DNA of 64,000 bases from Candidatus Poribacteria bacterium (GCA_965197475.1 CBDANF010000003.1:1280001-1344000); one strand, 5' to 3'. Positions 15,513 through 17,940 are shown, numbered from the stretch's first letter. Numbers and translations are program-made. The notes: generated by a model not told the origin, from the sequence alone.

Positions 15513-16217
15513 CTAAAAAGGCAAGCTGAGTTGCTGCGGCGTTGGTTCGGTTGGCAAAAGTTGTTTATTACCCGTTAGAAGTGCAAGGTAATAATCCTTA
15601 TCGTTAAATTTCTGTTCATCAATCAGTCCATTTTTGGATAACGAAACAAATGACGCAGCAGCGCGCGCTTGGCAATTCAACGAGCGATTTGGATTGAAGA
15701 CAATGTCTGAGAAACCTTGAAACACTTCAAGTTCTTGCATCAGATCTTTCTTTTTCTGATACAATGCAGTGATATATAACCAATCGTAAAAAGCCGTTTT
15801 AGGTTCAATAGGAAAATCTTCTCCGCAGAAGTTAAAAGTGATCAACTCTCCCGAATTTTGCAAACGCTCGTCTGTTTTCGCGGATCGGCTTGAAACCGAA
15901 TATAAATTGCGGTAAGGACCTCCATTTTCAAATACCTTACTTCCTTGATACGCACACTCCACACTCATTTTCTGACCACTTGGTGTTTCCAACGGTAGAT
16001 TAAAAGCACTCAACGATACCCCAAGCCGTGATGCCGATTTTCGCGATATTTCCAAAATCGGAGCGATTCCCTGCTTTTCGGCAGCGTCATGTAAAGATAA
16101 AATGGTTTTTTGCATCTGCGATTTTGCAAAACCGGGATGCCATTTGAATTCTATATCTACCGTTTCAACATACGGAAATCTGTTGAAATCAGGGGTAAAA
16201 ATGGGACGGTTTGCCAT
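15513..16217 (-). CDS. darG: DarT1-associated NADAR family antitoxin (DarG1)
   Basis: MANRPIF, FKWHPGFAKSQ, LEISRKS..LGVSLSAFNL, SVECAYQGSKVF, TAFYDWLY, FSDIVFNP..SLNCQAR; RBS ggag overlaps darT stop. Confidence 0.88.
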   Translation of the reverse strand: MANRPIFTPDFNRFPYVETVDIEFKWHPGFAKSQMQKTILSLHDAAEKQGIAPILEISRKSASRLGVSLSAFNLPLETPSGQKMSVECAYQGSKVFENGGPYRNLYSVSSRSAKTDERLQNSGELITFNFCGEDFPIEPKTAFYDWLYITALYQKKKDLMQELEVFQGFSDIVFNPNRSLNCQARAAASFVSLSKNGLIDEQKFNDKDYYLALLTGNKQLLPTEPTPQQLSLPF

Positions 16218-16228
16218 TGTTTTAACTC

Positions 16229-17095
16229 CTAAAAAGGTATATCACCGTCAAAATCATCAAGTTCCTCATCATTACCGTCACTGAGGTAAGAAAGAGGAAT
16301 ACCATCATCGTTAAATTTTTCAGGCCTCCATACTTCATAATCACATCTCGCATCAAAATACTTCCGATCAACGAAAAACTTATCAGAAAAAGTTCCAATA
16401 TAATTAGAACGCCATTGCTCCAAAATAGTTGCATTCCGAAAATGAATCGCGTTAATGTACTCCGTTGGAATCTGGTCAAAAACAAGAACCTCCGCTTGAG
16501 GGTGTGTCGGATAATTCTGAGGTATTTGCAAGTCTTGGTGCTTGATGCCGTAAAAATCTCCAAACAAATCTTTTAACGTTTCAGTTTTTTTCCTTTCATT
16601 CAATGGAATAGAACGGACAGCATTAGAGGCGGCATTTCGCTGGCAAAACGCGCAATCCAATTCCCATAACACCTTTGCATCAAGCAGTAGAACAACCCAT
16701 TGGGAATCGTTGACTTCTTCTGATTTCATCCCTTCTCTAATGCTATAGAACATTTGGTAGTTTGGAAAACTGATGCTCAAACAATTCGCTTCTGGGCACC
16801 GGTCGGCGCGATCAGCGTCATTCCACCAAAATTGTTGCCCGCGTTCATGCAAAATACTTCGTCCTAACAATCCTTCTTGTAGAATACTTTGAAGATTTTC
16901 GATCCGTGTAAAATGGCAAAGTGTTTCTATTCCGCGTTCCTCACAAAACTGTTGTATTTGGGATGCGCGCGTATCAAAAAATTCCAGTTCCTCTTCTACG
17001 AGGATAGTTTTGTCTTTCTCAGAAACGACATCCCACAGCAGAACTACTCCATCCCGACACCCACTGGCAAGGTGCAACCATCTGGAGAAAAACAT
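16229..17095 (-). CDS. darT: DarT DNA ADP-ribosyltransferase toxin domain (probable C-terminal part of a WD40-DarT fusion)
   Basis: LCHFTRIENLQSILQEGLL, NDxxRxD, CLSISFPNYQMF, FCQRNAA, catalytic HPQAEVLV; begins with half a WD40 repeat LASGCRDGVVLLWD. Confidence 0.88.
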   Translation of the reverse strand: MFFSRWLHLASGCRDGVVLLWDVVSEKDKTILVEEELEFFDTRASQIQQFCEERGIETLCHFTRIENLQSILQEGLLGRSILHERGQQFWWNDADRADRCPEANCLSISFPNYQMFYSIREGMKSEEVNDSQWVVLLLDAKVLWELDCAFCQRNAASNAVRSIPLNERKKTETLKDLFGDFYGIKHQDLQIPQNYPTHPQAEVLVFDQIPTEYINAIHFRNATILEQWRSNYIGTFSDKFFVDRKYFDARCDYEVWRPEKFNDDGIPLSYLSDGNDEELDDFDGDIPF

Positions 17096-17940
17096 AAACT
17101 GCTAATTGTTGCTGTATGTCCTCTGAAGGTATTCAACTGCTTGCCTGTAGCAAAATCCCATAAATCAATTTTGGAATCACTCCCTACACTAGTACTCGCT
17201 ATCGTGTAACCATCCTGACTGAAAGCTAGAATATTGACAACATCTTCTTCAGATACCGACAAATCTTTTAGCAACACATGCTTATTAGGATCCCGTAACT
17301 TCACACTGATAATATACTTCGTTGACTCATGGTCGTGAACAAAAATATGTCTATCTGTATTGAAAACTATTGATAGTAATGATTTTACTTTAGACACAAC
17401 AAATATGGCGCGCATGTGCCCATCTGTACTGAAATTCGCTGATAAAACATTGCTTCCATATCGTTGTGGAAGGAATTCGCGGAATGAACCCGTGGCTATA
17501 TCGTACAAGTTAATCTCGCCGGACCAACTGAAATCAGGAATATCAACATCTCTAAGGATATCTAAGGAAAACTCAAGGTTATCTAAGGAAATACCCGTAT
17601 TAACACAATGAATATTGGACACGCCATTAAAATTGGACATGCCATTTAACGTTCCTAAAAAATGACCGGTAGCAATATCCCATAAATGGATTGTACTGTC
17701 TGCTGGACTTATACCAGTTAGATTGCAACTATCCGGACTGAAAACCATAGAAGTAATATATCCTGTGTGTCCGGACAGCAAAGAAATTTCTTTACCTGTG
17801 GGCGCGTCGTAAAGCAAAATGCCAGTGTTACGAGCCACTGCCAATCGAGTACCATCTGGAGAAAACTGAATATCGTTGATTGCGTCTTTTCCGAGGCGGA
17901 CTTTTGCACCTTCGGGTAAATTCCCAGGGTTTGTTTTCAT
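17044..17940 (-). CDS. cytoplasmic WD40 repeat domain (probable N-terminal part of WD40-DarT fusion)
   Basis: LPEGAKVRLGK, FSPDG, GHT, LWD repeats; no signal peptide; last repeat broken by a frameshift at 17071-17072. Confidence 0.8.
   Translation of the reverse strand: MKTNPGNLPEGAKVRLGKDAINDIQFSPDGTRLAVARNTGILLYDAPTGKEISLLSGHTGYITSMVFSPDSCNLTGISPADSTIHLWDIATGHFLGTLNGMSNFNGVSNIHCVNTGISLDNLEFSLDILRDVDIPDFSWSGEINLYDIATGSFREFLPQRYGSNVLSANFSTDGHMRAIFVVSKVKSLLSIVFNTDRHIFVHDHESTKYIISVKLRDPNKHVLLKDLSVSEEDVVNILAFSQDGYTIASTSVGSDSKIDLWDFATGKQLNTFRGHTATISSLCFSPDGCTLPVGVGME

Follow-up and report, generated by a model that had tools for sequence, protein, structure and literature searches.

A DarTG1 operon of Candidatus Poribacteria with a WD40-DarT1 fusion toxin, replisome-type tail motifs and a disrupted toxin gene

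The operon described here lies on the minus strand of a 64,000-nucleotide stretch of DNA of a Candidatus Poribacteria bacterium, a symbiont of sponges (GCA_965197475.1, CBDANF010000003.1:1280001-1344000), referred to below as the window, at positions 15,513 to 17,940. It comprises an open reading frame (ORF) for a WD40 propeller, an ORF for the DNA ADP-ribosyltransferase DarT and a NADAR gene. The operon is an architectural variant, in a previously undescribed form, of the DarTG1 toxin-antitoxin (TA) system, and in the window genome the toxin of this DarTG1 locus is disabled. A preliminary description of the same DNA had presented it as a candidate new defence system; what was found instead is DarTG1 with another domain architecture. 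Taken as a whole, we consider it probable that the operon encodes a WD40-DarT1 toxin and a NADAR antitoxin, each with a tail of a replisome-docking type, and that the toxin was inactivated recently. Its interest rests more on the two docking tails, which reach well beyond Poribacteria, than on the propeller.

Results

Identity of the DarT1/NADAR pair

DarT1 ADP-ribosylates guanine in single-stranded DNA (ssDNA) and NADAR reverses the modification (PMC11543638); the DarTG1 system of Escherichia coli defends against phages (PMC11543638, PMC11257639). The only solved DarT matched by the window DarT was DarT1 of E. coli C7 (8BAQ, E 1.7e-36), and the closest solved structure of the window NADAR was the NADAR of G. 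lovleyi (8BAT, E 3.7e-56). Residues were mapped by hand from the HMMER alignment to 8BAQ, in which the solved chain is numbered natural +1 and has Ala at 152 because it is the E152A mutant. R35, N48, D49, R52, D54, M71, F72, N104 and the catalytic E152 were all identical in the window DarT; R52, D54, M71, N104 and E152 are essential in DarT1, and the others bind the substrate (PMC11543638). With E152 matched and 8BAQ and 8BAT as closest structures, the DarT1/NADAR pair with its catalytic glutamate in place, as it had been described, was confirmed. In the window NADAR, D171 and K114 were at least 90% conserved among the aligned homologues; going by numbering rather than by alignment, they probably correspond to D171 and K115 of the E. 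coli C7 NADAR. By its sequence, the locus has the DarT family membership, DarT1 subfamily, essential residues and adjacent cognate NADAR that define DarTG1. The toxin is classified as a guanine-type DarT1 rather than a DarT2, given the 8BAQ match and a partner that is a NADAR and not a macrodomain. PADLOC recognized the DarT (2.3e-11), left the window NADAR unmatched and drew only a weak HEAT/ARM match for the propeller.

The two enzyme families and their gene order are those of the DarTG1 systems of E. coli C7 and G. lovleyi (PMC11543638). From these the window toxin differs by an added WD40 propeller of ~340 amino acids (aa) and a tail with the tip of the ssDNA-binding protein SSB, and the antitoxin by an added tail of the clamp-binding type; the solved E. 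coli C7 DarT1 chain has 208 residues. Most NADARs are free-standing (PMC11543638). In DarTG2, which consists of DarT2 and the macrodomain protein DarG, ADP-ribosylation of a base in ssDNA is undone by a hydrolase antitoxin, as in DarTG1. DarTG2 is, however, thymidine-specific, with a macrodomain antitoxin and inhibition by direct binding, whereas the window pair is of the DarT1/NADAR type.

The toxin gene and its frameshift

The DarT ORF lies in a different frame from the WD40 ORF and overlaps it by 52 nucleotides (nt). Read in the WD40 frame, the sequence closes with ...GHTATISSLCFSPDGCT, after which come 8 junk codons and a stop. Read from that same point in the DarT frame, it gives LASGCRDGVVLLWD, which supplies the second half that the WD40 repeat lacks, and this stretch aligns (HMMER) to the WD40 repeats of the solved propeller 5yzv. 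The last WD40 repeat does run on in the DarT frame, as had been noted earlier, and the DarT ORF is composed of the end of the last WD40 blade, a linker, the DarT1 ADP-ribosyltransferase domain and a tail. WD40 and DarT form one gene that is split by a 1-nt indel; it was found intact in two of the runs compared below and in 75 of 106 longer homologues.

The window stretch is present in eight public runs from four studies. Four of these runs were compared, as assembled contigs, which hide minority variants. Runs X3 and X5, both from one sample, carried the broken form of the window with 0 differences and 0 gaps (16897-18000 and 16788-18000, respectively). Run X4, which shares study and organism label with X3 and X5 and comes from another sample, was identical to the window over 17024-18000 except for one extra base. 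Run X6, from a different study and a diverged strain, showed 22 differences and the same insertion as X4. The base was inserted behind 17071 in full depth in X4 (50.7/50.7) and X6 (83.1/83.1) and was absent from X3 (0/35.5) and X5 (0/15.5). It is a T on the plus strand and an A on the minus (coding) strand, giving the codon ACA for Thr. With it, a single ORF of 570 aa is obtained that reads ...SPDGCTLASGCRDG... and ends in DDFDGDIPF. One extra base at 17071-17072 had been predicted to restore the fusion; the position and the length of the product were correct, and the base, predicted as C, was not, both bases giving Thr. Runs X1 and X2 (sponge metagenomes) shared only 0.05-0.06 of words, and nothing was drawn from them.

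In the window allele, the 1-nt deletion in the last WD40 blade ends the propeller ORF and leaves DarT without its natural start, and the NADAR is intact. An intact toxin reading frame is thus lacking in the window allele and present in X4 and X6. Because X3 and X5 carry the broken form and X4 and X6 the intact one, the break looks like a real allele and not like an assembly slip. The frameshift is most likely a recent, real inactivation of the toxin. A programmed frameshift was dropped as an explanation, since the intact allele has an extra base and the site is not slippery; there is no homopolymer at 17071/17072. The linker between propeller and DarT varied in length, window 16960-17005 corresponding to 248 letters in X6 against 44 in the window.

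The WD40-DarT family and the propeller

Intact WD40-DarT fusions were found when relatives were searched for them, as the preliminary description had advised; their complete absence, which it had given as grounds for refutation, does not apply. Of 106 longer relatives of the DarT ORF, 75 gave BLASTP matches to the window's WD40 piece as well as to its DarT piece, and homologues aligned with the WD40 ORF over residues 1-294. Proteins of this kind are already in public databases under generic names; the three WD40-bearing relatives with a source name are listed as 'DarT ... family protein [Candidatus Poribacteria]'. A subset of 33 full-length fusions was defined within the 106 by a length of 540-700, matches to both parts and a hydrophobic-Phe end. 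Mean pairwise identity in this subset was 0.43 for the propeller and 0.61 for DarT; the propeller diverges faster, and the sensor or targeting role put forward for it earlier is a possible one. A recent accidental join of the WD40 part was rejected, as 75 of the 106 homologues are fused and the propellers are only 0.43 identical.

A set of 80 loci was recovered with the NADAR profile from contigs representing one genome per species. A WD40-DarT ORF was present in six of them, all from Poribacteria (L004, L005, L006, L013, L016, L017). Of 151 sampled genomes from the window's phylum, 88 had a DarT match, which in 20 genomes fell in an open frame of at least 460 aa, counted irrespective of WD40. 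A second, better-scoring DarT class (E ~1e-47 to 1e-51, frames of ~390-450 aa), distinct from the window's type, was seen in ~45 of the 151 genomes.

The fold of the propeller was seen in the AlphaFold2 (AF2) model of an intact homologue, P0001, whose DarT part shares 80% identity with that of the window. The model has a mean predicted local distance difference test (pLDDT) of 74 and a predicted template modelling score (pTM) of 0.54. In it, residues 15-346 form an all-beta propeller of four-stranded blades (mostly pLDDT 75-91), 349-365 a disordered linker, 367-575 the alpha/beta DarT domain and 577-612 a disordered tail (pLDDT <50). No confident contact between the domains and no confident placement of the tail were obtained in the P0001 model, and docking in cis is neither supported nor excluded by it. 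The tandem repeats found by PF00400 and the closed propeller of the model point to a genuine WD40 protein.

The C-terminal tail of NADAR and the beta clamp

The window NADAR ends in PQQLSLPF. QL(S/D)LF is the consensus beta-clamp-binding motif, which is usually terminal, and such motifs are degenerate (PMC9690074). With a terminal motif of this form, the window NADAR is a predicted clamp binder. In 45 aligned NADAR homologues, Q229 was invariant and L230 at least 90% conserved behind a variable linker, and the ends alternated between QLxLP[FLI] and QQ[LI]SLF. A penta- or hexapeptide clamp motif stood within the last 8-10 residues in 111 of 120 close homologues.

A diverse set of NADARs was made up of 150 representatives (50% clustering), 83 of them of single-domain size. 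Q-x-x-[LIM]-F occurred in the last 8 residues of 20/83, compared to 0.3 in shuffled tails (maximum 3), and in 3 of 17265 internal windows. The broader end Q-x-x-[LIM]-[FLIVM] was found in 31/83 against a shuffle mean of 1.0 (maximum 4 in 500), and the last Q stood exactly at -5 in 21/83. At the loci, the broad end was carried by 28 of 73 NADARs against 1.3 in shuffles (maximum 6), and strict end forms were present at 18 of 60 loci outside the Poribacteria set.

NADAR residues 200-234 were co-folded with the first DnaN of the window genome using a 31-row alignment. The ipSAE values were 0.65, 0.65 and 0.68, and three controls gave 0.00-0.01; the mark applied is one that 58 of 80 solved complexes and 2 of 110 mismatched pairs attain. 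Between runs, no fewer than 89% of the contacts were in common, and the partner's pLDDT was at least 57. NADAR 226-234 contacted DnaN 170-175, 240-245, 273-278, 316-318, 342-344 and 358-365, segments which we take to be the canonical peptide cleft. The co-fold (0.65 versus 0.01) would place the NADAR tail in the beta-clamp cleft between domains II and III. An AF2 model of the window NADAR from an alignment of close homologues had a mean pLDDT of 39.7 and was uninformative on fold and tail. Two dnaN paralogues stand in tandem in the window genome (372 and 367 aa, with 76% identity). Across 41 genomes of the phylum, 2-4 DnaN matches were seen in most members of the window's genus, some of them in open frames of 585-615 aa.

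The C-terminal tail of DarT and SSB

The window DarT ends in DGNDEELDDFDGDIPF. DDDIPF is the conserved C-terminal hexapeptide by which SSB engages its partners (PMC5872125), and the window genome's own SSB ends ...TEDDIPF. The DarT tail is of the form of the SSB C-terminus, being acidic, disordered in the P0001 model and terminated by D-D-x-I-P-F, and partner binding is predicted for it. As in bacterial SSB (PMC5872125), an acidic disordered tail ends in a tip, which is identical in the window DarT and the genome's SSB; here, unlike in SSB, the carrier is an ADP-ribosyltransferase without an oligonucleotide-binding (OB) fold.

A D-[IL]-P-F end was present in 52 of the 106 longer DarT homologues, and ~12 more end in near variants; others are truncated or belong to a subclade ending ...WQN. 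Two copies of the tip were found in 7/106. Among DarT1 proteins of near length, 37/118 end in D[IL]PF, or 43/118 by a looser rule, stand-alone toxins of 212-290 aa included. Outside Poribacteria, the tip was found at L025 (cyanobacterium), L038 (Aminobacteriaceae) and L042 (Anaerolineaceae). An SSB ending in [DN]-IPF was encoded by 5/5 other genomes checked. These genomes did not discriminate as to co-variation between the tips of DarT and of the host SSB, as all 5/5 SSBs had [DN]-IPF and the DarT of one of the genomes was tip-less.

An N-terminal SSB OB fold was found in DarT1s of 17 protein clusters (P0377-P0392, P0394), and the tip was present in 0/17. This OB fold in sister DarT1s suggests an independent link to SSB that is mutually exclusive with the tip.

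Both tail motifs are conserved far above what chance would give. They are not bound to the WD40 fusion, since they occur as well on stand-alone DarT1s and NADARs from other phyla. Of the earlier proposal of replisome-type docking tails, the tails themselves held up, being conserved and above chance, with the NADAR tail co-folding into the clamp cleft; their tie to the WD40 fusion did not.

Operon layout and synteny

The WD40 ORF, the DarT ORF and, directly downstream, the NADAR gene were all found where they had been reported (Table 1). The gap between the DarT stop and the NADAR start is 11 nt, and GGAG precedes NADAR. The hairpin 3' of NADAR has a folding energy of -17.4 kcal/mol (z -4.7), and 0/200 shuffles folded equally well; a consensus scan of the region did not list it. 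Six promoter-like sites were found in the region, not above shuffles (6.7 +/- 2.7). The best of the six is the TTGAGA-17-TATAAT site, a candidate by consensus match only. A promoter 5' of WD40 had been claimed; the 11/12 site is there, but such sites are no more numerous in the region than in shuffles.

Table 1. Positions of the operon features in the window and of related features in other loci
Feature	Position	Strand	Remarks
Promoter-like site	18028..18000	-	TTGAGA-N17-TATAAT with TG extension, 11/12 consensus, ~60 nt 5' of WD40 ATG
WD40 ORF	17940..17044	-	298 aa; PF00400 77.5 bits (cut-off 27); last 8 codons out-of-frame junk
DarT ORF	17095..16229	-	288 aa; PF14487 80.2 bits (cut-off 22.5); Pfam match 16406..16918
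Frameshift site	17071..17072	-	one base short compared to intact allele
Acidic DarT C-terminal tail, SSB-tip-like	16279..16232	-	end D-F-D-G-D-I-P-F
NADAR-DarT1 ORF	16217..15513	-	234 aa, intact; PF22397 287 bits (cut-off 27)
NADAR C-terminal Q-L-S-L-P-F, beta-clamp-binding-type motif	15533..15516	-	end of window protein
Terminator-like hairpin, then UUUU	15448..15405	-	~65 nt 3' of NADAR stop
SSB-DarT1	L007:4927-5985, L009:4918-5967, L011:4889-5968		PF00436 33-40 bits (cut-off 26)
Tandem dnaN	L083:739-1857, L084:757-1860	-	corresponds to G000:C3 ~724402-726851

Most Poribacteria loci share the order ABC ATPase, glycosyltransferase, 354-aa membrane protein, toxin, NADAR, 175-aa protein. The toxin slot is occupied by WD40-DarT (L004, L005, L006, L013, L016), by SSB-DarT (L007, L009, L011), by a DarT-NADAR fusion of 460 aa (L003) or by a short DarT (L015). 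Elsewhere the slot shows DarT and, in a different frame, WD40 similarity (L008), a DarT in two pieces (L018) or a remnant of 27 residues (L041). In L010 and L014 the slot is empty, with NADAR and the syntenic flanks intact and no DarT or WD40 similarity left. Given these broken and empty slots, the window frameshift is a further case of toxin decay beside a kept antitoxin, and the orphan NADARs of L010 and L014 imply that NADAR may be of use even when its toxin is gone.

Neither a defence island nor further defence or mobile genes were found in the window neighbourhood. The neighbours are an oxidoreductase, a gamma-glutamyltranspeptidase, glycosyltransferases, an ABC ATPase and leucine-rich repeat (LRR)/dockerin proteins. 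That the operon sits in a defence island or mobile element was rejected on account of these neighbours and of flanks that are syntenic in relatives. Two large proteins are encoded nearby: in that of window 12577-14481 (+), LRR repeats are combined with a dockerin and a GHL15 glycosyl-hydrolase-like domain, and in that of window 24721-26343 (+), a dockerin with a copper monooxygenase C-terminal domain. Proteins of this kind are typical 'eukaryote-like' proteins of symbionts.

Other DarT architectures

Several further domain combinations were observed. P0010, P0086 and P0091 (677-951 aa) have DarT fused to a complete sigma-70 (regions 1.2, 2, 3 and 4), P0010 with two DarT stretches. DarT1 carries C-terminal ankyrin repeats in L026/L027 (Latescibacteria) and P0448, and an N-terminal cold-shock (OB) domain in L030 (Rivularia) and P0087. 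In P0096-P0105, one of which is from an uncultured Enorma sp., a DarT of 552-589 aa has the acidic-aromatic end ...YDDEM(W), perhaps a lineage-specific counterpart of the SSB tip; their N-terminus is weakly IF2_N-like (PF04760, 23.3 bits, below the cut-off of 25.3). DarT-NADAR and macrodomain-DarT-NADAR also occur as single-chain fusions (P0043, L003, L019, P0472, P0482, P0494), P0043 combining macrodomain and NADAR with DarT in one chain. The clamp-type tail of NADAR is kept in P0043, L003 and P0472, and the ends are different in P0482, P0494 and the fused L019 ORF.

Discussion

In the full-text literature searched, supplements and subscription journals being outside the scope, no mention was found of the WD40-DarT fusion, the clamp motif of NADAR or the SSB-like tail of DarT. 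Papers listed for DarT together with WD40 were, by title and abstract, general reviews of ADP-ribosylation or PARPs; among those listed for NADAR and the sliding clamp, none dealt with a DarT-associated NADAR, 'Nadar' in most of them probably being a surname; for the SSB-like tail nothing relevant appeared, and for clamp motifs in TA systems only SocB. In the text of PMC11543638, WD40 and SSB are unmentioned, the one 'clamp' is the name of a cited author and the one 'fused' concerns plant NADARs. The texts of the DarTG1 papers that were searched contained no link of toxin or antitoxin to the replisome.

Two known kinds of system resemble the operon in part. STAND/Avs-type defence proteins have tetratricopeptide repeat (TPR) or WD40 sensors fused to effectors. 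As in these, a variable repeat module is borne here by a toxic effector and modules are swapped between relatives; the nucleoside triphosphatase switch of the STAND/Avs type is absent from WD40-DarT. The Caulobacter SocAB system is, as is predicted here, a TA system tied to the beta-clamp cleft via a short motif, and its toxin SocB is the closest precedent for a clamp-wired TA system (PMC9690074). SocB, however, binds and blocks the clamp, whereas the motif is here on the antitoxin, a DNA-repair-type hydrolase (PMC9690074 for SocB), which suggests recruitment and not inhibition.

In the mechanism that we propose, the toxin would be a 570-aa chain of an N-terminal WD40 propeller, a disordered linker, the DarT1 domain and an acidic tail with the SSB tip (DDxIPF). 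DarT1 would ADP-ribosylate guanine in ssDNA and the NADAR hydrolase would remove the modification. The NADAR tail (QLSLPF) may tether the antitoxin to the host sliding clamp, by which DNA copied by the replisome would be kept clean. The SSB-like tip may hand DarT to SSB-docking proteins at ssDNA, and sister DarT1s with an OB fold would be brought to ssDNA directly. The propeller, a variable module for binding proteins, would regulate the toxin or aim it.

A more far-reaching and speculative version, to which we assign a low probability, is immunity by address label: clamp-riding NADAR would spare DNA copied by the host, and DNA copied by a foreign replisome would stay modified and stall. DarT1 would reach exposed ssDNA through the SSB tip and SSB-partner enzymes, or through its own OB fold. 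The replisome that copies a DNA, and not the sequence of that DNA, would mark it as self or non-self, foreign meaning a clamp-independent replisome such as that of a phage. The swappable N-terminal module (WD40, ankyrin, cold-shock domain, SSB) would set when and where the toxin is released.

Several points weigh against the explanation favoured here, a recently inactivated DarTG1 operon with replisome-type tails. Toxicity, guanine specificity, clamp and SSB-partner binding and phage defence are properties that we infer, the last by analogy with E. coli DarTG1 only. In the AF2 model (pTM 0.54), tail and propeller have no confident position relative to DarT. The co-fold pass may echo the many solved clamp-peptide complexes and show likeness rather than binding; the alignments were our own and the calibration is rough. 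About 60% of the diverse NADARs and about half of the DarT1s are without the tail motifs, which implies that the motifs are inessential to the system. The absence of defence or mobile neighbours and vertical inheritance are unusual for defence systems. The allele evidence comes from assembled contigs rather than raw reads, and X3 and X5 may stem from the window's own source sample and thus not be independent. Finally, given the high abundance of WD40 repeats in Poribacteria (PMC3909097), the availability of the domain rather than a sensor role may account for the fusion.

This last point leads to the alternative that the propeller is a generic scaffold or oligomerisation module gained in repeat-rich sponge symbionts, which we regard as quite possible, if short of probable. 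Besides the abundance of WD40, DarT1s with the same tail exist without an N-terminal domain (212-290 aa), and no ligand is known for the propeller; yet the fusion was kept across diverged lineages (the 33 proteins above, with their low propeller identity), and other binding modules take its place in relatives, in the manner of sensor-effector defence proteins. That the whole operon serves chromosomal growth or replication control, or is an addiction module, rather than phage defence is plausible but on the unlikely side. Reversible ADP-ribosylation of ssDNA at the fork, aimed by two tails that both point to the host's own replisome, could tune symbiont replication; DarT is reported to control replication and gene expression in M. 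tuberculosis (PMC12170906), and across Poribacteria genera the locus keeps its synteny and is inherited vertically, with no mobile or defence genes nearby. Against this, the N-terminal module is swapped (WD40, SSB, ankyrin, cold-shock domain or none) and the toxin is often lost with NADAR kept, which looks like conflict-driven turnover and not like housekeeping, and the E. coli system acts against phages (PMC11543638, PMC11257639). Vertical inheritance favours control of the organism's own replication, whereas module swapping and recurrent toxin loss favour phage defence.

The tails and the frameshift each allow other readings. It is doubtful that the SSB-like tail acts in cis as a DNA mimic that blocks the ssDNA groove of DarT until the WD40 part or another trigger releases it. 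A flexible linker carries the strongly acidic tail, and the C-terminal domain of DarG reportedly mimics ssDNA for DarT2, going by the title of a 2023 article by Deep et al. AF2, however, gave no confident intramolecular docking (tail pLDDT <50), some proteins have two tips (7/106), and the exact I-P-F tip is conserved rather than mere acidity, although the set was chosen by its end motif. A chance or compositional resemblance of both tail motifs is very improbable. The motifs are short (5-6 residues) and clamp motifs are degenerate (PMC9690074), but the broad NADAR end was seen in 31/83 with ~1 in shuffles, the stricter form in 20 with 0.3, and internal windows yielded 3/17265; moreover, Q229 is invariant next to a variable linker, and the motif stands at the extreme C-terminus, with Q at -5 in 21/83. 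We also consider it unlikely that the frameshift is a sequencing or assembly error and that the WD40-DarT gene of the organism is in fact whole and functional. The genome was assembled in long-read style into 3 contigs, the same strain is intact in X4 with no other difference, and X3 and X5 share a sample that is possibly the source of the window. Still, the same deletion appears in two separately assembled runs (depth 22.6 in X3 and 15.5 in X5), the site is not a homopolymer, and broken (L008, L018, L041) or absent (L010, L014) toxins beside a kept NADAR recur in relatives.

As the window toxin is a broken allele, an intact copy must come from a relative or from another sample. The clamp-binding-type end on DarT1-associated NADARs of many phyla makes a link to the replisome testable, and so does the SSB tip on many DarT1 toxins, exclusive with the SSB OB fold. 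The same question can be put to the single conserved slot in Poribacteria, in which the module was swapped and the toxin lost repeatedly and the antitoxin was kept. If the idea of immunity by address label is true, the tails found across many phyla would explain how DarTG1 spares its host, a point that the DarTG1 papers searched leave open.

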